Below are positions 6,144 to 31,764 of a stretch of DNA of 31,764 nt, piece by piece. A program made the translations under genes and the position numbers. Source of the stretch: a virus (lineage: Duplodnaviria > Caudoviricetes); the IMG/VR virus record IMGVR_UViG_3300042401_001464, positions 1 through 31,764 of that record; one strand, written 5' to 3'. Position 1 is the first letter of the stretch; every line of letters begins with the position of its first letter. The notes below the pieces were generated by a model. The model worked only from the letters and a program-made list of their open reading frames with translations, searched no databases and had not been told where the DNA came from.

Positions 6144-6165
6144 ATTTTAATTTAATTTTTTTTCG

Positions 6166-6241
6166 TGGAGCAGGTAGGAATCGAACCTACCACATACGCT
6201 CAGTGCAAATGAGCCCCGCCAGCCTTGGTACATGCTGCCCC
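6166..6241 (-). tRNA. tRNA-Ala(TGC)
   Basis: GCTCA-TT-TGC-AC-TGAGC; G3:U70; atypical D arm. Confidence 0.85.
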
Positions 6242-6299
6242 AAATTGAAGGAAGACTAACCTTCTTTGTCCTTTGTACGTAGGGACTTTTAAGTCTTTT

Positions 6300-6375
6300 T
6301 GGGCGAGAGACGGGCTTGAACCCGCGACCTTCTGGTTGGAAGTCAGATGCTCTAAGCCAACTGAGCTACTCTCGC
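6300..6375 (-). tRNA. tRNA-Gly(TCC)
   Basis: GCGAGAG acceptor; anticodon loop CT-TCC-AA. Confidence 0.9.
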
Positions 6376-6385
6376 GTTTATTTTG

Positions 6386-6459
6386 TACCGATAGCGGGAC
6401 TTGAACCCACAACCTTGACGATATAAGCGTCCTGCTCTCACCAATTGAGCTATATCGGC
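6386..6459 (-). tRNA. tRNA-Ile(TAT)
   Basis: GACG-CT-TAT-AT-CGTC; full cloverleaf. Confidence 0.88.
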
Positions 6460-6468
6460 GTTTCAAAG

Positions 6469-6542
6469 TAGTCCGTATGGGATTCGAACCCATGATCTTC
6501 TCATAGAAAGTGAGACGTGTTAAACCACTTCACTAACGGACC
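6469..6542 (-). tRNA. tRNA-Glu(TTC)
   Basis: TCTCA-CT-TTC-TA-TGAGA. Confidence 0.92.
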
Positions 6543-6552
6543 ATATATTTTG

Positions 6553-6636
6553 TGGGAACCGCGGGATTCGAACCCGCTCAGGCGTAAGCCACTTGTTTTA
6601 CAGACAAGCCCGACTCTCCAACGTCGGCGCGCTCCC
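6553..6636 (-). tRNA. tRNA-Tyr(GTA)
   Basis: CTTGT-CT-GTA-AA-ACAAG; long variable arm. Confidence 0.92.
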
Positions 6637-6643
6637 ATAAACG

Positions 6644-6675
6644 AAAAAACCCAATCTGTTTTGCAGACTGGGTTT
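6644..6675 (-). terminator. Attenuator terminator 1, directly 5' of tRNA-Tyr
   Basis: AAACCCAGTCTG-CAAAA-CAGATTGGG-TTTTTT. Confidence 0.85.
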
Positions 6676-6698
6676 ATCATATTTTGTAATCTTTACAA

Positions 6699-6785
6699 CT
6701 ACTCAACAGACAAAGTCAGTCCACTTACAAAGCTACCCGCTTCATATGCATACCCTATGGCTTCTATTTTGTGTGTTGTTTTCAT
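6699..6785 (-). CDS. Putative attenuation leader peptide 1, MKTTHKIEAIGYAYEAGSFVSGLTLSVE
   Basis: 28 aa between promoter boxes and terminator; 11-codon run of I/E/A/G/Y only. Confidence 0.8.
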   Translation of the reverse strand: MKTTHKIEAIGYAYEAGSFVSGLTLSVE

Positions 6786-6916: not shown

Positions 6917-7000
6917 TGGAAAGCTACGGAATCGAACCGTATACCTTTAGGTACCCACTGTTTTCAAGACAGGGCTGCAGGCCGCTGCAGTTCATCTTCC
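6917..7000 (-). tRNA. Atypical tRNA-Ser(TGA) with 6-bp D stem, imperfect acceptor stem and A73
   Basis: CTGT-CT-TGA-AA-ACAG; long variable arm; GGTTCGATTCC. Confidence 0.7.
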
Positions 7001-7002
7001 AT

Positions 7003-7089
7003 TGGCGGAGAGCAGAGTATTTGAAACCCATTCCTTTCAGAACCACTCGCTTAGCAGGCGGTGTCAGGGACCTCCCTGATTTACTATCC
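7003..7089 (-). tRNA. tRNA-Ser(GCT), 8/4-type fold
   Basis: CGC-CT-GCT-AA-GCG; G73 plus encoded CCA; long variable arm. Confidence 0.8.
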
Positions 7090-7096
7090 ATTTTTG

Positions 7097-7184
7097 CGGA
7101 AAAAGTCGGGCTCGAACCGACACACCACTGGGGCCTACGCATTTCAAGTGCGCTGAGCTTAGTCCTCACTGCTCTTATTTTTCC
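7097..7184 (-). tRNA. tRNA-Ser(TGA)
   Basis: GCGCA-CT-TGA-AA-TGCGT; G73; long variable arm. Confidence 0.85.
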
Positions 7185-7189
7185 TTTTG

Positions 7190-7261
7190 TAGTCCCAGAG
7201 GGATTCGAACCCCCACCTGATCGGCCGTAACGACCTGTCCTGTCCAGTTAGACGATGGAAC
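7190..7261 (-). tRNA. tRNA-Arg(ACG)
   Basis: GGTCG-TT-ACG-GC-CGATC. Confidence 0.88.
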
Positions 7262-7272
7262 TATATAAACAC

Positions 7273-7304
7273 AAAAAACCCTCGGCGTTTAGTCCGAGGG
7301 TTTT
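7273..7304 (-). terminator. Attenuator terminator 2, 5' of tRNA-Arg
   Basis: AAAACCCTCGG-ACTAAACG-CCGAGGG-TTTTTT. Confidence 0.85.
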
Positions 7305-7330
7305 ATTTATATGATACAATTAAAGTATTA

Positions 7331-7408
7331 CTAACTAAATAAACACGTCAGATCTATCACTCTACTCGAGCGACTTAAACTTGACGATATGTTAATAATA
7401 GTTTTCAT
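7331..7408 (-). CDS. Putative attenuation leader peptide 2, MKTIINISSSLSRSSRVIDLTCLFS
   Basis: 25 aa; TCG TCA AGT TTA AGT CGC TCG AGT AGA run. Confidence 0.78.
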   Translation of the reverse strand: MKTIINISSSLSRSSRVIDLTCLFS

Positions 7409-8004: not shown

Positions 8005-8135
8005 TGGTAGGGAGGTGGGATTCGAACCCACGACCACGCGGTTAACAGCCGAAGTAACTCTTCTATTCGGCACTCTTGCGAGGCAAAGTTATAAATGAGT
8101 ATTGTACGTGCTCTACCAACTGAGCTACTCCCTAC
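8005..8135 (-). tRNA. tRNA with GTT (Asn) anticodon interrupted by a 55-nt insert (8052-8106) in the 5' strand of the anticodon stem
   Basis: Canonical D arm (TAGCTCAGTTGGTAGAGC) and T arm; removing the insert restores CGCGG-CTGTTAA-CCGCG. Confidence 0.8.
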
Positions 8136-8360: not shown

Positions 8361-8380
8361 AAATTATATATTATGTTCTG

Positions 8381-8455
8381 TGACCCCGGTGGGACTTGAA
8401 CCCACGACCCCTCCATTAAAAGTGGAGTGCTCTGAACCAACTGAGCTACGAAGTC
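8381..8455 (-). tRNA. tRNA-Lys(TTT)
   Basis: CTCCA-CT-TTT-AA-TGGAG. Confidence 0.92.
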
Positions 8456-8463
8456 ATAATTTG

Positions 8464-8536
8464 TGTGGATGACAGGAATTGAACCTGCGCGACCCAGATC
8501 TTCAATCTGGTGCTCTACCTGCTGAGCTACATCCAC
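8464..8536 (-). tRNA. tRNA-Phe(GAA)
   Basis: CCAGA-TT-GAA-GA-TCTGG. Confidence 0.9.
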
Positions 8537-8540
8537 GTTT

Positions 8541-8615
8541 TGGTGTCGAACGGGACTTGAACCCGCGACCTCTGGTTCCACAAAACAGCGCTCTGACCGA
8601 CTGAGTTACCGACAC
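8541..8615 (-). tRNA. tRNA-His(GTG), no encoded G-1
   Basis: CTGTT-TT-GTG-GA-ACCAG; C73. Confidence 0.85.
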
Positions 8616-8617
8616 AG

Positions 8618-8690
8618 TGACCCCGGTGGGTTACGATCCCACTCTCCCCATATTAAAAGTATGGTGCTTTCCCGATTAAGCTACGAAGTC
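8618..8690 (-). tRNA. tRNA-Lys(TTT), variant T loop
   Basis: CCATA-CT-TTT-AA-TATGG; T loop ATCGTAA. Confidence 0.88.
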
Positions 8691-8698
8691 ATATTTTG

Positions 8699-8771
8699 CG
8701 CGTCGCCAAGGATTCGAACCCTGACCCTCTGGGTTGGAACCAGAGATGCTAAGCCGTTACACCAACGACGC
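8699..8771 (-). tRNA. tRNA-Trp(CCA)
   Basis: TCTGG-TT-CCA-AC-CCAGA; G73. Confidence 0.88.
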
Positions 8772-8783
8772 TTGTGTTTTTTG

Positions 8784-8855
8784 TTGCCCCGACAGGGATT
8801 GAACCTGTGATCCCCTGATTAAGAGTCAGGTGCTTTACCGCTCAGCTACAAGGCA
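8784..8855 (-). tRNA. tRNA-Lys(CTT)
   Basis: CCTGA-CT-CTT-AA-TCAGG. Confidence 0.9.
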
Positions 8856-8859
8856 ATTT

Positions 8860-8935
8860 TGGTGGAGCCGACGGGTTACGATCCCGTTCCTCTGGATTTT
8901 CAGTCCAGCGCAATGACCACATCTGCCACAGCTCC
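8860..8935 (-). tRNA. tRNA-Phe(GAA), variant T loop
   Basis: CTGGA-CT-GAA-AA-TCCAG; T loop ATCGTAA; encoded CCA. Confidence 0.88.
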
Positions 8936-8944
8936 TTGTTATGT

Positions 8945-9019
8945 TGGGTGCATGAGGAATTTCGAAATCCCGACCTTCGGCTCCACAAACCGACACTCTG
9001 CCTCTGAGCTACACACACC
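8945..9019 (-). tRNA. tRNA-His(GTG)
   Basis: TCGGT-TT-GTG-GA-GCCGA; G-1:C73. Confidence 0.9.
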
Positions 9020-9032
9020 ATATATGTAAACG

Positions 9033-9062
9033 AAAAAACCCAAGTCTTTTGAACTTGGGTTT
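9033..9062 (-). terminator. Attenuator terminator 3, 5' of tRNA-His
   Basis: AAACCCAAGTT-CAAAA-GACTTGGG-TTTTTT. Confidence 0.85.
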
Positions 9063-9082
9063 CTGTTATTTATTGTTATTGT

Positions 9083-9202
9083 CTACAAAGTCGTCAAATC
9101 TTCCGAAAACAAACACAATACTTTTACAGTACCAAGTTCTGATTTATTGCTAAACCACTTGCTTGATTTACTAAAATGCTTATGTGTATTAATTGTTCTC
9201 AT
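9083..9202 (-). CDS. Putative attenuation leader peptide 3, MRTINTHKHFSKSSKWFSNKSELGTVKVLCLFSEDLTTL
   Basis: 39 aa; H/K/F/W/N(+S) run followed by antiterminator GAACTTGG. Confidence 0.8.
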   Translation of the reverse strand: MRTINTHKHFSKSSKWFSNKSELGTVKVLCLFSEDLTTL

Positions 9203-9973: not shown

Positions 9974-10557
9974 AATAATTTTTTATTTTTTGAGCCGTCA
10001 TTTGCGTATTTTATACCCATAATTGTACCTACGATGGAGAATGCATTTGTCAGTAGTATACTTACTAAGTTACTCCATGCTGGTCCTATTATGTTTGTTT
10101 CTTTATTTAGTATTATTGCAACTATATAAAGTGATGTTGCTACAACACCAACACCTATTATTATCCATATTGAAACTTTTACAACTGTGTTTATAAGTTC
10201 ATATTGTGTTCTTTTACGTATTATTTCTAAGTCTTCCTCAGCAACCTCTTTGGCCTTTATTGCGTTTTGTTTAGCTATTTCTGCGATGTTTAATGCATTT
10301 TTCAGTTCCTCACCTATCCTTACATTTTCATCTTTCCATTCTAACAATTCTCTATTTTGTGTTTGTATTTGTTTTGTTATAACTAATCTTTTTCTTCGAT
10401 TGTTTTTATCCTTATCTGTTGCAATTTTAATATATTCTTTGAATTCTAAATCTGTATCATCTGTTTCAATTACTTTAAGAATATTACCTTCCAAATAGAT
10501 ATTATTTATCTTGGCTAATTCGAGAAGGTCTTTCTTTGTATCTTTACAGAGTTTCAT
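9970..10557 (-). CDS. Coiled-coil protein with 2 C-terminal TM helices (holin or lysis-regulator candidate)
   Basis: Hydrophobic segments; ATGA overlap with lysozyme. Confidence 0.6.
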   Translation of the reverse strand: MKLCKDTKKDLLELAKINNIYLEGNILKVIETDDTDLEFKEYIKIATDKDKNNRRKRLVITKQIQTQNRELLEWKDENVRIGEELKNALNIAEIAKQNAIKAKEVAEEDLEIIRKRTQYELINTVVKVSIWIIIGVGVVATSLYIVAIILNKETNIIGPAWSNLVSILLTNAFSIVGTIMGIKYANDGSKNKKLL

Positions 10558-10988
10558 TATTTATATATTTTGAAATTTGCAGTCCTGTTCACATAAGATG
10601 GATAGTCCTTTTTAAATTCTTCTAGTCTTGGTTCTATATCATCATTCTTTATTATCCAAAATTGTGCACCTGCTTGTAGTGCTTTGGCTTGTTCGGTTGC
10701 TTCATTTGAAGATGAGATGATGCCTATAACAACGTGATTTCCATATTCAAAGTTTATTCTTCTGACTAATTCTATTCCGTCAAATGTAGAGCCTATTATA
10801 TTTAAGTCTACAAATACACAAACTGGTCTTCCTGTTGGATTTTTGTGCCATTTTGAGAATTTATTGGATGCCTCATCAGCGCTATCTATACATTCTAATG
10901 TAAGTGAAATATCGAGTAGACTACAAGCGTCTTCAAAAACTAAGTGAAATAGAGACTCATCGTCTACGAGTAGTATTGAATCAATCAT
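10557..10988 (-). CDS. Stand-alone response-regulator receiver domain
   Basis: ILLVDDE; VFVDLN (phospho-Asp); DGIEL; IISSS; WIIK. Confidence 0.9.
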   Translation of the reverse strand: MIDSILLVDDESLFHLVFEDACSLLDISLTLECIDSADEASNKFSKWHKNPTGRPVCVFVDLNIIGSTFDGIELVRRINFEYGNHVVIGIISSSNEATEQAKALQAGAQFWIIKNDDIEPRLEEFKKDYPSYVNRTANFKIYK

Positions 10989-12759
10989 TTTTATATTTTA
11001 TTTTTATTTTAGTACCACCAATGTCTACCTTTTCACATGACACTTTGAATCCATGTTCTTTAAGTATTGCAATGCAGATATTAAGTCCTAAACCAGTTCC
11101 TGATTCCTTTTGGTCAGCTTTTCGCGCATATGGTTTAGAGTATATATCAAATTCTTCTTGTGTTAGTCCACGTCCGTTGTCTTGTATGGCTATTGTATCA
11201 TCGGTATCGTGATATATTTTAACTATTCTGGTTGGACTGTCATTGTATTTTAGACCATTTCTTATTAGATTATCTATTGCCGTACAAAATAGAGATTCGT
11301 TAACTTCGATAGTTGGTAAATTATCAGATAATATAACTGCTTCTTTGTATGCGGTTGATTCTAAATATCGGTTAAGTATTTCTTTTATATTATATGGTTC
11401 AATTTCCAGTACACTATCCTTTTTTACCAGATTTGTAAATTCATACACACCTTTATAAACACGTTGTGTGTGAGTGAGTCCTTCTTTTAGAAGTCTTATT
11501 GGTGCCTCTAATTTATATTCTTTTATTATTTCTGGTTTTAGTCTTCGTATCAATGAGTTTATTCCTTTTGGAATATAGGTATTTATACCTGAGTGCATAT
11601 CGTGTCTCAATATTTTGGCGGCGTGTTCTAAGTATGTGTTTTTCTTTTCGATTTCAATTGATGCATCAACGATTTTGGTTACGTCTTGTCTAATTGATGT
11701 GAATCCGATATGTTCATTAGTTTCTGGATCAAAATCTGCCTTTATATAGGTATCTACAAAATAGTGATGTCCATCTTTTGACTTATTGGTAACAACCTCG
11801 TTCCATATTTCTCTTTTGTTTATTGTGGTTGTGTACATATTTTTCCAAAATTCTTTGTTATGTATACCGGAGCTCAATATTTGATGGTCTTTACCCATAA
11901 CTTCTTTAGTTTTCCATCCTGAAACTTTTGTAAATTTTTCATTGACATAAGTTATTCTACCTCTTTTGTTTGTTTTGGAGACCAACATTGCAGTGTCCAT
12001 AAAATTCTCAATTTCTACAAGATTTTTTTTAGTATCATTACCATCTGCAATTGACCATGAGAATGAGTATAATGATGATAATACTTGTGCGAAATTAACT
12101 TCGGTGTCTATCCAATTTCTTTTGGTGTAACTCTCAATACAAATAACACCTATTGTTTCACCTCTGAATAAAATTGGTACATCTATTAGAGATTTTATAC
12201 CAAGTGGTTTTAGATAGCTTTCGTGTAGACATTCTGTTGCTAAATTTGTTTCTGCATCGTCTGCAACTATAACTGGGTTGGTTAGTAATTCATTGAAATA
12301 TGATAGATAATCACTATATTCTAAACTACCACCCGTTGACCAATCATTATCGGATAATTTATAGAGCATATCCAATTCAATTGATTTAGTTTGATCGTTA
12401 TACAACCAAATTCCACATCTATCAACACCTAAATTTTCAACAACATCTTTGGTTAATATTTTTGAACATTCTAATAAATCGCCATCGTAAAAAACTGGAT
12501 TATGTGATTGGTTTATAAGTGTTAAATTTAATTTATTTGTATAATTATTTAATTTTTCCGCATCTTGTGCTCTTATTAGGTGATCTCTTACCATTCTAAA
12601 GAAAAATGGTAGGGTTGATAAAAAAAATAATATTTCGATTGTTTTTGTACTTGATGAAGTTTCTAATATATCGGTCAACATAAGTAACTTTAGTATAAGG
12701 TAACCCACGGAAAAGGCACTTGTCATTATTATGTTTGTGAGTGTTCTTTTACTAATCAT
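10981..12759 (-). CDS. Membrane sensor histidine kinase (TM-GAF-PAS-HisKA-HATPase)
   Basis: GAF (GIKSLIDVPI..GVICIE); PAS (GRITYVNEKF); H box LRHD; N box NLIRNGLKY; DNGRG; GTGLGL. Confidence 0.93.
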   Translation of the reverse strand: MISKRTLTNIIMTSAFSVGYLILKLLMLTDILETSSSTKTIEILFFLSTLPFFFRMVRDHLIRAQDAEKLNNYTNKLNLTLINQSHNPVFYDGDLLECSKILTKDVVENLGVDRCGIWLYNDQTKSIELDMLYKLSDNDWSTGGSLEYSDYLSYFNELLTNPVIVADDAETNLATECLHESYLKPLGIKSLIDVPILFRGETIGVICIESYTKRNWIDTEVNFAQVLSSLYSFSWSIADGNDTKKNLVEIENFMDTAMLVSKTNKRGRITYVNEKFTKVSGWKTKEVMGKDHQILSSGIHNKEFWKNMYTTTINKREIWNEVVTNKSKDGHHYFVDTYIKADFDPETNEHIGFTSIRQDVTKIVDASIEIEKKNTYLEHAAKILRHDMHSGINTYIPKGINSLIRRLKPEIIKEYKLEAPIRLLKEGLTHTQRVYKGVYEFTNLVKKDSVLEIEPYNIKEILNRYLESTAYKEAVILSDNLPTIEVNESLFCTAIDNLIRNGLKYNDSPTRIVKIYHDTDDTIAIQDNGRGLTQEEFDIYSKPYARKADQKESGTGLGLNICIAILKEHGFKVSCEKVDIGGTKIKIKYKND

Positions 12760-20646: not shown

Positions 20647-20658
20647 GGTGGCATTTTT
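20631..20658. terminator. Bidirectional terminator
   Basis: aaaaatgccacc-ctaa-ggtggcattttt. Confidence 0.85.
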
Positions 20659-22190
20659 TATGCTAAAACTGTTTCGGTTCCACTTTTAGTGAGAGCCTCA
20701 ATTTTACCTCTAATCTCTGTAAGTGTGGTTTCGTTGTAAAACTTACCATCTTCGTAGATAACTTGAAGGATTCCTTCTTTCTCTTCGTCAAATGTGCATT
20801 GTACACCTACTGAGTGGTCACCATCTTCTGTTTCATGAACCGAGATAAGTCCTTTCAATGATTTCTTAGTTCCATCATCTGAGATTGGATCTTTGTAGAT
20901 ATCGTGTTGAACTCCATTCTCTTCGAACCAAGCACCTTTTGCTGCAAATCCAAATGTATCACGCGTATTGTATTGGTAAGTATAAGAACCTACACCTAAA
21001 ACAATGTTCGTAGCTGCAAAACCTTTCTCTGCTAATCTCTCATAGATTTGAACCTGACGATCGGTCGTAATAGAGTCACCGTAAATGGCACCGATGTGTG
21101 GGTCTAAGACTTTATATCCTTGTTCATTGATTGTTCCACCAAAGATGTCCCATAAACACTCAATCAATCCTTTTGTGTAGAACTCTGGATAGAATGCGCG
21201 GTTCTCATTATCTGTTAATTCAGTTCTTCCGTGTCCACAGATGATTTCAACTGGATCTCCAGAGTCAGGACGAATAACTAACTTACCATCACGAGATAAG
21301 ATTTGGTCTTTCAGGTCGAAGCAATATCCACCTTCAGATGGTTTGGCAACTTTTGTGATGTCGAACGTATCCATTACTACTGATAAAATACCTTTATCAA
21401 ATTTGTTCATCCAATCGATTAACATTTGTTTCTCACCAACGGTGAAAATTTTGGTAGTAGATACAGAGTGTTCTGATGCATTTACAGAGTTGATACAAAC
21501 TTCATTCTTAGGCTCACCATAGAAGTAACGAGCTGCTGGAATAACTACAATAGTATCAGAACCTCTAAATGACGTAGCGTGTCCTAAGCCAGATGAAACC
21601 ATCGTCCAAGGATCGATACCACGTGCTGAGAAGTCGTGTGCTAAGAAAGGAATCAACCAAGCGTTAGTAGGGTCTGTCTTTAGTACCCACTCGTAAAGGT
21701 TTCGGTTGTACTTAAGTGCGATTGTTGCGGATGTTGCAGGTTTCCACGCCAAAGATGACACGATTGTCTCTAAGAAAAGAGTAAGCCAAGCGTATCCTTT
21801 CTTTGTGTTGACGAACGTCATATGTGGCACGTTCGGTCTTGTCTCGATTCCCTCAGGAAGAGCTTTTGCTCTAATTGGTAAGTAACCTAATTTATGAAGA
21901 GTAATAAAGTGGTCTCCATTAAATTCCATACCTAAATATATACTCATATCTTCAACGAATGATATAGCTTCTTCAACTGGCTTGTTGAAAAAGTTTTCAG
22001 TGAATTCGTCATGAATCCATCGCCAAGTTAGTTGTTGTCCAAATGATACAATTTTATTGATACCTTTTGGTGCGTGTTTTGTAGAACGTGGAATCCATGT
22101 CCCATAAAGGAAGTCAGTTCCTTCTGCGAGCATCGCTTTGTGGCCAATCTTGTAGCCGTCTGTGTAATACAGTGATGTGGGTCTAAACAT
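20658..22190 (-). CDS. nadV: Nicotinamide phosphoribosyltransferase family protein (NAMPT/NadV; probable Namat of NARP1)
   Basis: TDGYKIGH; HDFSARG; ASEHSV; VIRPDSGDP; IYGDSIT; RDTFGFA; KKSLKG. Confidence 0.92.
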   Translation of the reverse strand: MFRPTSLYYTDGYKIGHKAMLAEGTDFLYGTWIPRSTKHAPKGINKIVSFGQQLTWRWIHDEFTENFFNKPVEEAISFVEDMSIYLGMEFNGDHFITLHKLGYLPIRAKALPEGIETRPNVPHMTFVNTKKGYAWLTLFLETIVSSLAWKPATSATIALKYNRNLYEWVLKTDPTNAWLIPFLAHDFSARGIDPWTMVSSGLGHATSFRGSDTIVVIPAARYFYGEPKNEVCINSVNASEHSVSTTKIFTVGEKQMLIDWMNKFDKGILSVVMDTFDITKVAKPSEGGYCFDLKDQILSRDGKLVIRPDSGDPVEIICGHGRTELTDNENRAFYPEFYTKGLIECLWDIFGGTINEQGYKVLDPHIGAIYGDSITTDRQVQIYERLAEKGFAATNIVLGVGSYTYQYNTRDTFGFAAKGAWFEENGVQHDIYKDPISDDGTKKSLKGLISVHETEDGDHSVGVQCTFDEEKEGILQVIYEDGKFYNETTLTEIRGKIEALTKSGTETVLA

Positions 22191-22202
22191 TTTATTTTAT
22201 TT

Positions 22203-22841
22203 TTATTTATTATCTTCGAATATAAGTGTGAATCTTTTTTTTGATAAACTCCATCTCATTTTATAATAGACGAATATGTACTCAGTCTTTTTATCGTCTT
22301 TATAGTTTTGTAGAAAAGTAAATGTCATCCATTTCAATTTTTTACTTTCAATTGCATCCGACACTGATTTTATAGAAATTATTTCATAAAATAAAGAATC
22401 TGAACATGTGCAACTTTCATTTTCGTCAAAAATACGTAAAACAATGTCATTTTTTATTGTGTCTGACATATAATAAAAGAAACGAATTATTGAAAACTCG
22501 GCTTTCGGATCATCTATTTCTTCACTTATAACATATTTTAGTTTTTCGTTGTTTTCAAATAATAATTTCCTTCTATCTGCGGCCAATGTGTTAATCTTTA
22601 CATTGACATCTTTGTTAGTCATAAAAATACCATTCTTATGAATATGTTTTGCAATAGTTTCTATTAAGTTTATGGAATCGTATTCGTGTAAATATGAGTA
22701 AGTGTGTCCATTATCCACAAAGTAATATTCCTTTAGGTTGGGTTCCTCATAATATATTGGTGTGTCCGCCTGTGAGAGACTAAAAAACGAAAATGATATA
22801 ATAAATATCGTTAGCATTCTGTTTATCACATCAGTTCTCAT
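22203..22841 (-). CDS. Hypothetical secreted protein
   Basis: 212 aa with a signal peptide. Confidence 0.7.
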   Translation of the reverse strand: MRTDVINRMLTIFIISFSFFSLSQADTPIYYEEPNLKEYYFVDNGHTYSYLHEYDSINLIETIAKHIHKNGIFMTNKDVNVKINTLAADRRKLLFENNEKLKYVISEEIDDPKAEFSIIRFFYYMSDTIKNDIVLRIFDENESCTCSDSLFYEIISIKSVSDAIESKKLKWMTFTFLQNYKDDKKTEYIFVYYKMRWSLSKKRFTLIFEDNK

Positions 22842-23028
22842 TATATTTTCTTTTATTATGTTCTTTCTCTATTCCTTTCGCCAAACATTCGTTTTGAGAT
22901 TCCTCTTCAAATACTCCACCCATAAAGATAAAGAATATTCCTGGTAATGAAAGTAAGAAAGAAGGTATTATAAGAATCATTCCGAATATCCTAAATATGG
23001 CTCCTAATATGTTGATCATTTTTCTCAT
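22831..23028 (-). CDS. Small membrane protein
   Basis: 65 aa, hydrophobic N-terminal half; overlaps both neighbours. Confidence 0.6.
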   Translation of the reverse strand: MRKMINILGAIFRIFGMILIIPSFLLSLPGIFFIFMGGVFEEESQNECLAKGIEKEHNKRKYNEN

Positions 23029-23441
23029 ATCTCGTATATTCCTGGTTCGTCTGACTCGTCCAAAAAACGGAATTTTACCATAGTCTTTCCGACTAATTCG
23101 TGTGTCGACGTTTTGTTAACGTTTTCTATTTCTCCTATTGTGTATGCGGTTCTTACAGAATCTGGTATTCCTTGTCGTATACACATTTCAGAATAAAGTC
23201 TGTGAATTTCTTCCGCAATCTCTCTAACCTTCTCTGGCTTAGTTGTACATCCAGGATGTACATCCTCGTCCATAGGTATAACAATTTCGTCTTTGAACCT
23301 CTCGTTTATATACTCTGCAATAGTCGCGACATTTTCTTGAAAGGATTTAGGTGTCTCGGAAAGGAAATGACAATACTTTATCCAATCACCAGGAACACCA
23401 TCTTTTGGACATATCTTTGTGTATATAACTCCGTATTCCAT
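23025..23441 (-). CDS. Hypothetical protein
   Basis: 138-aa ORF in operon context. Confidence 0.75.
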   Translation of the reverse strand: MEYGVIYTKICPKDGVPGDWIKYCHFLSETPKSFQENVATIAEYINERFKDEIVIPMDEDVHPGCTTKPEKVREIAEEIHRLYSEMCIRQGIPDSVRTAYTIGEIENVNKTSTHELVGKTMVKFRFLDESDEPGIYEI

Positions 23442-23442
23442 C

Positions 23443-24252
23443 TTATACCGTTTGTGGTTTGTTAAAAACTGTTCCTTCTAAAAGATAAACAAGATCATAA
23501 GTTGTCAAATTGTTGAGCTCGTAATATCCGAATTTCGAGTTGGTTGTGAATATTTTGTCATAGTGCTGCTCCAACTCAGGGTTAGGATTCTGAACCGTCA
23601 TATGTGATACTGCTAAGTAAAGTTTACCCGCGTTTCTTTCTTTCAGAAGTTTAGCCAAACCAACAAAAGTTCCTCCAAAAACACAAAGGTCATCAATAAC
23701 AAGAATATCTTTACCCTCAAAGTCTTCGTTCTCGATTACTTGCGTTAGCTTGTGTGTGATTAGGTCTCTCGACTTACTCGCACTATACACCTCACCCTCG
23801 AACTTAATTTTATCTGCTAATTTATTGATCCATTTGAACGATCCTGCGTCAGTTGATAAAAGCACCGGTTCCTGTTCCAGGTCTTTTAGAACCTGTGATA
23901 TAAAAGCACTATTGTCTACGACTCTAGCGTTTCTCACTCCCATTCCTGTTGAATCTGAGTGTGGATGGAATATTGTAACCTTGCTAAAATCACAAGAGTT
24001 GATAAAGTCTGCAACAAGTTTTAGTTCAAAAGACTCATTGTCTGCAAATCTACGGTCGTGTTGTTGTTGGAACATGCACGGTATAAAAAGCTCTACATCG
24101 TTTACTCCGTTAAAGTCACAAACGTCTTTGATCGACTTTATAAAGAAAAGGTCCTCGTATGAATTTATCCTCTCTACAATCTGTGGATTGGTGAAGTCTT
24201 GTACCTCTGCATAAATACCACCATCGGGATATTTTTTTCTAGTATATTTCAT
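23443..24252 (-). CDS. prs: Ribose-phosphate pyrophosphokinase family protein (probable Adps of NARP1)
   Basis: YPDG; QHDRR; HPHS; STDAGS; KSRD; VIDDLCVFGGTF; AVSH. Confidence 0.88.
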   Translation of the reverse strand: MKYTRKKYPDGGIYAEVQDFTNPQIVERINSYEDLFFIKSIKDVCDFNGVNDVELFIPCMFQQQHDRRFADNESFELKLVADFINSCDFSKVTIFHPHSDSTGMGVRNARVVDNSAFISQVLKDLEQEPVLLSTDAGSFKWINKLADKIKFEGEVYSASKSRDLITHKLTQVIENEDFEGKDILVIDDLCVFGGTFVGLAKLLKERNAGKLYLAVSHMTVQNPNPELEQHYDKIFTTNSKFGYYELNNLTTYDLVYLLEGTVFNKPQTV

Positions 24253-29089: not shown

Positions 29090-29171
29090 AATATATATAT
29101 TTTACTTTTATATATTATTACTTACAATGTACCCGAGAAATAAACCACTACTCTACTACTCTATATTTTTG

Positions 29172-29244
29172 TCTAAGTGGGAGGTCACGATCCCCCGGCC
29201 TGAGAGTCCCAAACTCCCCGCTCTACCATCTGAGCTACACCTAG
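29172..29244 (-). tRNA. tRNA-Pro(TGG), variant T loop
   Basis: GGGAG-TT-TGG-GA-CTCTC; T loop ATCGTGA. Confidence 0.85.
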
Positions 29245-29254
29245 TTATTTCTTG

Positions 29255-29326
29255 CGGTCTATGCGAGAATCGAACTCGCGTCTCCTCATAGACAGTGAGG
29301 AAGGATAACCACTACCCTAATAGACC
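29255..29326 (-). tRNA. tRNA-Asp(GTC)
   Basis: CCTCA-CT-GTC-TA-TGAGG; G73. Confidence 0.9.
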
Positions 29327-29333
29327 ATTTTTG

Positions 29334-29407
29334 TTGTCCCGCCTGGGCTCGAACCAGGAGTCTTCGCGGCCAAAACGCGACGATTTGCCTAATTAATCTA
29401 CAGGACA
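29334..29407 (-). tRNA. tRNA-Gln(TTG)
   Basis: TCGCG-TT-TTG-GC-CGCGA; U1:A72. Confidence 0.9.
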
Positions 29408-29413
29408 ATTTTG

Positions 29414-29488
29414 TAGGGTAGACCGGACTCGAACCGACACTATGTCCTCATCCCAAATGAGGCGGCCTACCAATTGGCCAACTACCCT
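29414..29488 (-). tRNA. tRNA-Pro(TGG)
   Basis: CCTCA-TT-TGG-GA-TGAGG. Confidence 0.88.
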
Positions 29489-29499
29489 AAGTATAAACG

Positions 29500-29529
29500 A
29501 AAAAACCCAGTTAGTAACTAACTGGGTTT
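29500..29529 (-). terminator. Attenuator terminator 4, 5' of tRNA-Pro
   Basis: AAACCCAGTTAG-TTA-CTAACTGGG-TTTTTT. Confidence 0.85.
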
Positions 29530-29550
29530 ATAATCATTTAAGCTTTTTAT

Positions 29551-29649
29551 TTAACTTTTTGACAATATACAGTTAGTCCCAAGTAACTTAGGTTGATCCT
29601 GATCCTGCGGGATGTTTACTACTGCGATATTTTTGTTAAAAGTTTTCAT
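29551..29649 (-). CDS. Putative attenuation leader peptide 4, MKTFNKNIAVVNIPQDQDQPKLLGTNCILSKS
   Basis: 32 aa; CCG CAG GAT CAG GAT CAA CCT run followed by antiterminator GACTAACTG. Confidence 0.82.
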   Translation of the reverse strand: MKTFNKNIAVVNIPQDQDQPKLLGTNCILSKS

Positions 29650-29709
29650 TATTGTTATATATAAAGTTTGTTACTCTTTGTTTTGTAAATATAGGAACTT
29701 TTTTTCGAA

Positions 29710-30399
29710 TTATTTTATATTTATATATTTTTTTATCTTATTTGGTGGTATATTATCATAAGTAAAATATCCTAACCTATAATTTGGATCCGTATGTAAT
29801 ATAAGACTATCGTCTTTGGAATCTATTTCAATAAGTATGTATTCGTGTTGATTATTATCGGATAATTTAAGATTTCTTAATAAAATTGGATAATTGTCTA
29901 AATCATCAAATAAGTATATTCTTTCAGGGTGTACAGAAATTCTATTTTTAGATTTTGGATATAATCCTAATTTTTTTATAGAATCCCAATTATTGGAATA
30001 GGTTAAATGATATAATTTATCAGGACATATTATGTTATTGGTTAGTAATCCATCGTCATATTTGGCTTCGTATTTTATTTCTATACTTGATACGTTAGTT
30101 GTATTTATATCTTTGATATTTTTAAAATAGTTATCCACCCCATTGGACAATATTACTCTATATTCAGATGGAAAATATCCGAGTGTATATGATTGATGGT
30201 TTATATTCTCTATTATATCCTTTTTGTTGGTAAATACTTCAATATAGAATACTAATTTATCTATTATTTTTATTGTGTAAGTTACATTTAACCCACGAAT
30301 GTAATCGGTAAGTATTCTACTATAACGATTTATGTCATGTGTTCTTATTAAACCTTCTTTTACATATACTGTAAATTCGGTATAATCTTTTATAATCAT
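29710..30399 (-). CDS. Protein with a C-terminal ADP-ribosyltransferase-like (Tpt1/DarT-like) motif
   Basis: LYHLT...WDSIKKLGLYPK...RIYL...NIPP. Confidence 0.55.
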   Translation of the reverse strand: MIIKDYTEFTVYVKEGLIRTHDINRYSRILTDYIRGLNVTYTIKIIDKLVFYIEVFTNKKDIIENINHQSYTLGYFPSEYRVILSNGVDNYFKNIKDINTTNVSSIEIKYEAKYDDGLLTNNIICPDKLYHLTYSNNWDSIKKLGLYPKSKNRISVHPERIYLFDDLDNYPILLRNLKLSDNNQHEYILIEIDSKDDSLILHTDPNYRLGYFTYDNIPPNKIKKYINIK

Positions 30400-30483
30400 A
30401 CTATTTCTGCCTTATTTTTCCCATCATAATTTATATATTAAATGTAAATAGCACTCAACAATCGTGAGTGCCAGATACTGGTG

Positions 30484-30557
30484 TGGTCCCGCTCGGGCAC
30501 GATCCGAGGACCCCCGGTTTATGAGACCGGTGCTCTAACCAACTGAGCTACGAGACC
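30484..30557 (-). tRNA. tRNA(CAT): elongator Met or Ile2; variant T loop
   Basis: CCGGT-CT-CAT-AA-ACCGG; paired 1:72, so not an initiator. Confidence 0.88.
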
Positions 30558-30560
30558 TTA

Positions 30561-30770
30561 TAGATTAGTATTATCGACACCTTTACCCTTTGGACTTAGT
30601 CAGTTCGTCCGTTCGGGTTCTGTACTCGCTTCTTTCCGACTTGATTTCTAATCCTTGTCGGTTATAGCTTTCCTCCCAGTCCACGTATTGTTTGCGCAAC
30701 TATCCGTGATGCAAAGGGTCAGATCATTTGCACGATGGCTATTCCCTCCATCTTATCGATTACTAATCTA
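30561..30770 (-). ncRNA. Unknown ~210-nt structured RNA between two tRNAs
   Basis: Closing stem TAGATTAGTA-ATCGA / TCGAT-AA-TACTAATCTA; several internal helices; no ORF. Confidence 0.65.
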
Positions 30771-30771
30771 G

Positions 30772-30844
30772 CACGGGAGGTAGGATTCGAACCCACGACC
30801 AACGGATTTGGAATCCGCGACTCTACCAGCTGAGCTACACCCGT
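30772..30844 (-). tRNA. tRNA-Trp(CCA)
   Basis: GCGGA-TT-CCA-AA-TCCGT; G73. Confidence 0.92.
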
Positions 30845-30847
30845 GTA

Positions 30848-31513
30848 TTATAAAATATGAGCAAGTTCTTCTAAAGATAAACCCATATCAATATATCGTT
30901 TGTCACTACCTACAACAATCAATAGTTTTAAGTTATTTCTCGATTGTGCATCGGACATTTTGTGTGACATTTTTTCAGTTATCCAACCTTTATATTCAAT
31001 ATACAAGTTTTGTTCACTTATATAAAAGTCTGGATAGAATTTCTTTTGTTCACCATCTTTTGTTATGTAAGGAAAACCTTTCCAATTTCTTATCCATTTC
31101 ACCTTACTGGTGTCTAATATTTGAGCAACGATTATCTCTTCTTTATTCAGTTTCATCTTTTCGCCCCAAATATTTGTATATTCTGTAGTTTTGGATCTAC
31201 CACCATTTTCTCTTAGACCACCATTATTAGAATAGTTGCCAATTTTTTTCTTACCTACCTGAAGTAAGTTTGAACACTTTTTACTGCATGATCGTCGTAG
31301 TGATAATGCAGTAAAAGTATTAGTACAAACTTCACATATTAGTTCTAATGGTTCAACAGTTTTTTTGAGTTTTAGTGAAACTTTCCTGTTTATTTCAGTT
31401 CTTTTACTTTTTGTACTGAAACCCCTCGAGCATTTGACCGAGCAAAATCTACCACTACCATAACTTCCATCATGTGTGGAAGAACAATTTTCACAAATCA
31501 TATAGATATTCAT
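30848..31513 (-). CDS. Cys-rich zinc-finger plus PD-(D/E)xK nuclease (putative free-standing homing endonuclease)
   Basis: CENC, FCSVKCS, CEVC, SCSKKC; FYPDFY..LYIEYKG. Confidence 0.75.
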   Translation of the reverse strand: MNIYMICENCSSTHDGSYGSGRFCSVKCSRGFSTKSKRTEINRKVSLKLKKTVEPLELICEVCTNTFTALSLRRSCSKKCSNLLQVGKKKIGNYSNNGGLRENGGRSKTTEYTNIWGEKMKLNKEEIIVAQILDTSKVKWIRNWKGFPYITKDGEQKKFYPDFYISEQNLYIEYKGWITEKMSHKMSDAQSRNNLKLLIVVGSDKRYIDMGLSLEELAHIL

Positions 31514-31597
31514 TTTTATCTATATATATATATTTTTTCACCACTTCGAACCATATAAAAATGGTTTTGATTAGTATCAAAGAACGTTTTTTTTTGT

Positions 31598-31704
31598 TGT
31601 GTGTACGGGATTCGAACCCGTACACACTACCAAAATTTCTATGTCTGCAAACATTTCGATTTTGGCTCTCGTAGGTTGTTGCAGCAACCTTTGATAATCT
31701 TAGC
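31598..31704 (-). ncRNA. tRNA-like element: 11-bp minihelix capped by a TTCGAAT T loop, preceded by two hairpins
   Basis: GTGTGTACGGG-TTCGAAT-CCCGTACACAC-A. Confidence 0.5.
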
Positions 31705-31706
31705 TG

Positions 31707-31764
31707 TGGAGCTAATGGGATTCGAACCCATGACCCCTTGCCTGCCAGGCAAATACTCTAGCCA
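31707..31764 (-). tRNA. tRNA-Ala(GGC), 5' end outside the window
   Basis: TTGC-CT-GGC-AG-GCAA; 3' end TAGCTCCA (U70). Confidence 0.85.

Follow-up and report, generated by a model that had tools for sequence, protein, structure and literature searches.

The window, by which we mean the whole stretch of DNA analysed (31,764 nt), comprises an entire 31.8-kb virus record with a completeness of ~13%. Its best DNA matches are the unannotated GenBank phages LR756502.1 (642 kb; W01), LR745206.1 (635 kb; W02) and LR756501.1 (735 kb; W03). The available text of PMC7162821 assigns its five genomes above 634 kb to Mahaphage, with predicted Bacteroidetes hosts. We regard the window as a fragment of a virus resembling these Mahaphage-type giant phages, whose host is likely a member of the Bacteroidota. 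It encodes lysozyme and endonucleases. On its minus strand it also carries an NAD-rebuilding pair of nicotinamide phosphoribosyltransferase and PRPP synthetase (20658-24252), and a GAF/PAS histidine kinase with a response regulator (10557-12759).

At the locus studied here, a leader ORF precedes an intrinsic terminator and four tRNA genes (Table 1). The tRNAs lie 3' of the terminator in the order Pro-TGG, Gln-TTG, Asp-GTC, Pro-TGG, spanning 29488-29171. Codons 14-20 of the 32-aa leader read CCG CAG GAT CAG GAT CAA CCT. The sequence-only reading had described a seven-codon run made up of Pro, Gln and Asp only, residues that are absent from the remainder of the leader, and this description holds. 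Runs of at least seven arise in 2/200,000 permutations of the leader's own codons, and the chance of the run at window proteome frequencies is ~7e-6. Among the 305 short ATG ORFs in the window, the leader ORF is the only one with a Pro/Gln/Asp run of at least five. In this short ORF the codons cognate to the tRNAs encoded downstream are clustered, and six of the seven codons in the run are wobble-read.

Table 1. Coordinates of the Pro/Gln/Asp unit and of its sister units in the window.
Feature	Position	Strand	Basis or value
Candidate host sigma-A -7 box, one mismatch to TAnnTTTG	29686..29693	-	sequence
ATATATA motif, 13 nt 5' of ATG	29656..29662	-	sequence
Leader ORF, 32 codons	29551..29649	-	ATG-to-stop frame, conserved
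Regulatory run Pro-Gln-Asp-Gln-Asp-Gln-Pro, codons 14-20	29590..29610	-	sequence
Predicted segment 1 (protector), pairs with segment 2 in ribosome-free RNA	29608..29625	-	folding
Segment 2, predicted antiterminator strand	29570..29578	-	complementarity to terminator 5' arm
Intrinsic terminator hairpin, U6 tract	29500..29529	-	-14.0 kcal/mol
tRNA-Pro(TGG)	29413..29488	-	tRNA call
tRNA-Gln(TTG)	29333..29407	-	tRNA call
tRNA-Asp(GTC), unusual U at position 37	29254..29326	-	tRNA call
tRNA-Pro(TGG)	29171..29244	-	tRNA call
Sister unit: His/Lys/Phe/Trp(Ser)-rich leader, terminator, His/Phe/Lys/Trp tRNAs	8380..9202	-	
Sister unit: Ser/Arg-rich leader, terminator, Arg/Ser tRNAs	6918..7408	-	
Sister unit: Ile/Glu/Ala/Gly/Tyr-rich leader, terminator, Tyr/Glu/Ile/Gly/Ala tRNAs	6165..6785	-	

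The TAnnTTTG motif is given as the Flavobacterium sigma-A box consensus in the available text of PMC9723704, which also contains clues to leader-peptide attenuation in this host group. Exact matches occur within 100 nt upstream of 33 of the 50 classified leaders described below (shuffles: mean 2.0, max 7). ATATATA (ATAAATA allowed) is found within 30 nt of the ATG in 39/50 leaders, against a mean of 5.9 in shuffles, and its position peaks at -12 to -15 relative to the ATG. Across alignment A1 of the leader homologues, ATATA is invariant; the motif may be a phage promoter or an initiation signal. Directly upstream of the leader unit, a 229-aa ORF (29710-30399, minus strand) has a weak, sub-cut-off match to Tpt1/KptA (RNA 2'-phosphotransferase) and possibly functions in RNA repair.

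The design had been proposed to recur across the genome, and three sister units were indeed found at 9202, 7408 and 6785, their leaders rich in the residues of their own tRNAs. The tRNA genes of the window show further peculiarities. U37 is also present in its tRNA-Glu (6468-6542, minus strand) and in 13/55 distinct Asp-GTC genes of relatives, with a pyrimidine at position 37 in 18/512 tRNAs overall; in tRNA-Asp and tRNA-Glu it may serve nuclease evasion. A tRNA-Asn(GTT)-like gene at ~8006-8133 (minus strand) carries a ~55-nt insert between the D arm and the anticodon arm; it is the same in L025 and nearly identical in G001, and falls below default detection thresholds. The minus strand of 30483-31764 holds additional tRNAs (Trp, Met and an Ala-like one at the window end), interrupted by an endonuclease-like gene. 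No leader was seen before the Trp or Met tRNAs of this cluster, the start of which lies beyond the window. Between tRNA-Trp and tRNA-Met, a 211-nt non-coding stretch (30560-30770, minus strand) is closed by a long terminal helix, has a fold z of -3.8 and matches no Rfam family; judged by this modelled fold, it is possibly a novel structured RNA.

Terminator, antiterminator and folding

The hairpin at 29529-29500 is the sole terminator-like site within 29100-29800 and begins 21 nt after the leader stop. Every one of the 50 classified units has a gap of 19-34 nt between stop and hairpin, in line with the accessible part of PMC4824070, where attenuator terminators are placed more than 20 nt from the leader. 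A U-tract intrinsic terminator separates the leader from the tRNAs and lies clear of the RNA that a ribosome on the stop codon would cover.

The antiterminator segment GACUAACUG (segment 2; 29578-29570) lies 11 nt 3' of the run and forms eight Watson-Crick pairs and one G-U pair with 29524-29516, the segment of the terminator 5' arm shared by both structures. This confirms, with nine pairs, the pairing to the terminator strand that had been claimed from the sequence. The duplex is calculated at -11.7 kcal/mol. The 9-bp complement by itself is modest, being present in 73/3,000 shuffles. Complementarity and conservation nevertheless predict mutually exclusive II:III and III:IV helices, with strand II just past the stalled ribosome. 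In RNA free of ribosomes, segment 2 would be occupied by segment 1, which overlaps the beginning of the Pro/Gln/Asp run. The probability of segment 2 being paired upstream is 0.88, compared with a shuffled mean of 0.35, and is matched by 1/200 shuffles. Across units, the predicted I:II pairing exceeds the shuffled mean in 48/50 cases and ranks in the top 5% in 20/50.

We modelled folding with the ribosome at successive positions. When only 3 nt of the terminator 3' arm are made, sequestration of the 5' arm is 0.96-0.98 with the A site at codons 2-21 and 0.28-0.58 at codons 23-32. This drop between codons 21 and 23 would place the switch point just past the run, given the modelled ribosome footprint. 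The partial-hairpin model also predicts antitermination for a ribosome located on the stop codon or absent. In equilibrium folding with the complete terminator, termination wins at nearly every ribosome position (0.73-0.93; codons 14-15 are the exceptions, with 0.54 and 0.23), and forcing the 2:3 pairing costs 5.7 kcal/mol relative to the ribosome-free fold. Equilibrium modelling backs the switch only partly. As these folds favour the terminator, the switch would have to be kinetic and rely on coupling and pausing, described as a strict requirement in the available text of PMC1183508.

Conservation and leader-array matching across phages

Homologues were searched for with the terminator pattern alone, which returned 34 metagenome and 15 viral loci. 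A homologous leader is present in 20 of the 21 metagenome loci with downstream tRNAs and in one further locus whose sequence ends just past the terminator; 12/34 are unrelated terminators. Leader and tRNAs occur together in 8/15 viral loci. All 28 distinct leaders keep the antiterminator anchor in frame, at six lengths from 66 to 81 nt. Pro, Asp or Gln account for 146 of the 157 tRNA calls within 900 nt downstream, identical loci being counted separately. The antiterminator strand, which lay outside the search pattern, pairs in 92% of 189 cells from 21 homologues, and in 5-43% when slid by 1-3 columns; covariation in alignment A1 is one-sided, since the search pattern fixed the terminator arm. 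The Asp-Gln-Asp core is nearly invariant at both the nucleotide and the peptide level. In contigs of related strains, compared by hand and offering few sites from mixed strains, substitutions in the run are synonymous at 2/2 sites, while the residue is changed at 6/7 ORF sites outside the run. One non-run strain variant keeps a G-U pair in the antiterminator. Locus L027 (760-1000) has the terminator, Gln/Gln/Pro/Asp/Pro tRNAs and a spacer very like that of the window, with unrelated sequence in place of the leader.

In L050/L073 and L017 the attenuator terminator is separated from the first tRNA by a protein gene, which would as such be co-regulated. By eye this gene is HNH-like in L050; in W01 it is a 69-codon ORF. 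In broader searches, 11 loci in viral contigs fitted a generic terminator pattern, one of them relevant, and a loose leader pattern gave 117 loci, one inside G004. Cellular genomes yielded 13 terminator-pattern matches, none with a leader and an adjacent tRNA, a result that excludes such units in hosts only loosely. Model R1 had no match in 151 genomes of the phylum of G011 (17 scored candidates per listed genome, no positive control in the set), a weak negative.

The matching of leaders to arrays was then assessed in the DNA around tRNA clusters of 14 phage records. Units were identified as a hairpin with a U-tract upstream of tRNAs and a short ORF before each, composition being unused. After duplicate removal this gave 58 leader-terminator-array units, 50 of which fall into eight classes, labelled afterwards from peptide motifs: His/Phe/Lys/Trp; Arg/Ser; Tyr/Glu; Ile/Gly/Ala; a fusion of the latter two; Asn/Arg/Leu/Val/Ile/Thr/Met; Pro/Asp(/Gln); and poly-Gln. 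The eight unclassified units, three of them probably false, are included in the 58-unit counts and left out of the 50-unit counts.

For each unit we defined by position a sensing zone, the last eight codons where the ribosome leaves the antiterminator free; this test was added after whole-leader scoring. Cognate residues are denser in this zone than elsewhere in the leader in 56/58 units, and the unit's own array is strictly the zone's best within-genome match in 48/58 (median 0.75 versus 0.0). Whole-leader binomial scoring, which is blunter, ranks the own array first in 46 of 63 rows, and the observed score is reached by 0/20,000 within-genome permutations, five of these rows being duplicated. 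For one poly-Gln leader of G003 the choice was revised under an AT-rich-upstream rule, which was introduced later than the first pass. Relatedness among the units makes the p-values overstate their independence, and regroupings of tRNAs weigh more.

Such regroupings are seen for Gln. Its tRNAs are grouped with Pro/Asp in the window unit, where the leader has Gln codons; they stand alone behind poly-Gln leaders in eight records, and are joined by Glu/Met/Ile in W03 and by Pro/His in G002, leader composition following in each case. Many Pro/Asp leaders retain Gln codons although the Gln tRNAs form a separate unit. In W03, a Leu-rich leader likewise precedes five Leu tRNAs, and a Thr/Pro/Ala/Val/Arg/Gly-rich leader, missed by the pipeline, stands in front of a tRNA block that matches it. 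Before some tRNA clusters in W03 and G002 no leader was seen. CTA-anticodon tRNAs, which are amber suppressor-like, occur in the same two records (L063 and L066, respectively).

The antiterminators are class-specific as well. The median duplex energy is -12.4 kcal/mol with the own arm versus -8.2 kcal/mol with other-class arms, although in only 35/53 rows (three duplicated) does the own arm outperform 95% of the arms from other classes. In the His/Phe/Lys/Trp class, the window unit and its relatives differ by compensatory changes at matching positions of strands 2, 3 and 4. The spacing between the last cognate codon and the antiterminator is scattered (0-21 nt), because isolated cognate codons blur this measure. 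Codon choice follows the anticodon in places: Ile is ATA in 13/17 leader cases before TAT-anticodon arrays and in 0/8 before GAT-anticodon arrays, which in effect is a single evolutionary contrast. The Arg isoacceptor contrast has the same direction and is not significant (p 0.15).

These comparisons bear on whether the leader has a function at all. The hairpin could be a constitutive leaky terminator or a processing hairpin, with a vestigial or coincidental ORF; the equilibrium folds in favour of the terminator and the leaderless L027 would agree with this. Contigs of two RNA-recorded runs leave the leader uncovered, and those of one run cover the Asp-Pro tRNAs of a relative, contigs as such being uninformative on expression. 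A frame kept in 28/28 leaders, cognate enrichment in 56/58 units and class-specific antiterminators are unexpected of a vestige, and we hold this explanation to be decidedly improbable. Alternatively, the leader could work through nascent-peptide arrest or as an EF-P-dependent sensor of proline, its place before these tRNAs being fortuitous. The nearly invariant core and the prolines flanking the run would suit such a role, but the window leader has no Pro-Pro pair, and the eight classes encode unrelated peptides that each match their own array. Either role is a very improbable explanation.

Proposed mechanism, probable signal and known systems

We propose that the element is a ribosome-mediated transcription attenuator gating the phage tRNA array, a reading we consider highly probable. 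The leader-peptide attenuator put forward in the sequence-only reading finds support here, in that anatomy, conservation and cross-genome covariation, all at the level of sequence, fit it. If the ribosome slows on the Pro/Gln/Asp run, segment 2 would stay free and could capture the terminator 5' arm, so that RNA polymerase would continue into the tRNA genes (Pro, Gln, Asp, Pro). With a ribosome keeping pace, segment 2 would be covered and the terminator would form. We infer leader translation, transcription by the host RNA polymerase, their coupling and the switch itself. Each tRNA block would thereby be placed in a negative-feedback loop.

Codons that match downstream anticodons and precede a terminator/antiterminator could in principle be specifiers in an RNA that senses tRNA directly. 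T-box riboswitches likewise make a tRNA-responsive choice between terminator and antiterminator, and have been reported before tRNA genes in Firmicutes. Their fold, defined by a Stem I with specifier loop and T-box bulge, was not found in the phage unit: the T-box model (RF00230) gave no match at E <= 1 in the record, its control being positive in 6/14 genomes. The ATG-to-stop frame of the leader is, moreover, conserved. Direct sensing of this kind is extremely improbable, and in the proposed attenuator sensing would run through the ribosome. In the Rfam search, no family besides tRNA and no leader model was matched.

The unit is closer to attenuators of the trpL/hisL type, with which it shares a short ORF, clustered regulatory codons, I:II, II:III and III:IV helices (predicted here) and a U-tract terminator ~20 nt or more past the stop, as set out in the available texts of PMC1183508 and PMC4824070. 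It does not belong to the amino-acid operon leaders (trpL/hisL/thrL), as tRNAs lie downstream and no Rfam leader matches. Whereas those attenuators control enzyme genes, the phage units would control tRNAs, and do so in a virus. Unlike trpL/hisL, several units per genome divide the code, and their output would directly replenish the sensed molecule. Multivalent leader-peptide attenuators are known from thrL and ilvGMEDA, and leader-peptide attenuated aminoacyl-tRNA synthetase genes from E. coli pheST. Synthetase attenuators raise the charging enzyme, while the phage unit would raise the tRNA itself. Feedback on charged-tRNA supply via a translated leader is also a property of the hisS-paralogue leader attenuators in bacilli, according to the accessible part of PMC2965389.

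The mechanism of attenuation is thus a known one, and the new element is the kind of target, namely tRNA genes. In the literature covered (titles and abstract openings, mostly outside subscription journals) no leader-peptide attenuator of tRNA genes was found. The available text of PMC11555353 and that of the main article of PMC7162821 make no mention of attenuation, and the accessible portions of PMC2965389 and PMC4833913 make no mention of phages.

Which signal has been selected is a separate question. The switch would respond to the supply of charged cognate tRNA, whatever lowers that supply, and mechanism alone cannot separate starvation from tRNA loss. The same switch may hence have been selected to sense Pro, Gln and Asp starvation, as in biosynthetic operons. 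Classical attenuators read amino-acid supply via charged tRNA, and their codon biases mirror selective charging (available text of PMC1183508). Wobble-read codons are also favoured in the Pro/Gln/Asp leader family, where CCG makes up 36/73 Pro codons (13/156 in the window proteome) and GAT 65/66 Asp codons, a preference that may raise sensitivity or reflect RNA structure. Making tRNA would, on the other hand, supply no amino acid and so could not cure an amino-acid shortage, which favours tRNA loss as the selected signal. Ile and Arg are each split between two leader classes by anticodon, and this isoacceptor-level matching in sister classes suggests the same; tRNA groupings moreover vary among phages. 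We regard selection for amino-acid sensing as unlikely, if still a serious alternative. What has probably been selected for is a response to scarce usable tRNA for Pro, Gln and Asp, be it by cleavage, decay or poor charging. The earlier attenuator reading is supported in its mechanism, and is refined in that tRNA loss rather than amino-acid starvation is taken as the likelier selected signal.

Loss of tRNA during infection has precedents. Phage tRNAs with a role in counter-defence replace host tRNAs cut by defence nucleases: in the available texts, the T5 tRNA-Tyr counters retron-Eco7 (PMC11555353) and an anticodon-loop hypothesis relates phage tRNAs to tRNA-cutting defences (PMC10264068). PARIS is a further system listed in this connection (PMC11464382). 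The T5 case relies on a strong promoter according to the same text of PMC11555353, whereas supply from the phage unit would be conditional and array-specific. The attenuators may be linked to such tRNA-cutting defences. Tentatively, and with somewhat more doubt than confidence, we suggest that in giant phages of the Mahaphage-like kind the code is split over four to eight ribosome gauges acting independently. Each would report the loss of particular isoacceptors, for example to host anticodon nucleases, and induce only the matching tRNA block as an on-demand counter-defence, and the leaders would record which tRNAs are monitored.

What purpose phage tRNAs serve has been debated for decades, the two main rival answers being codon compensation and the replacement of host tRNAs that have been destroyed. 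These would become testable with a reporter of ~200 nt, and the partitioned form of the locus allows matched and mismatched leader/array pairs to be compared. The attenuators may also provide compact in vivo sensors for specific tRNA pools. Taken together, a switch wired to the decoding of the same codons would imply that the tRNA supply of these phages is conditional and feedback-controlled, and would add tRNA genes, and viruses, to the known range of leader-peptide attenuation.
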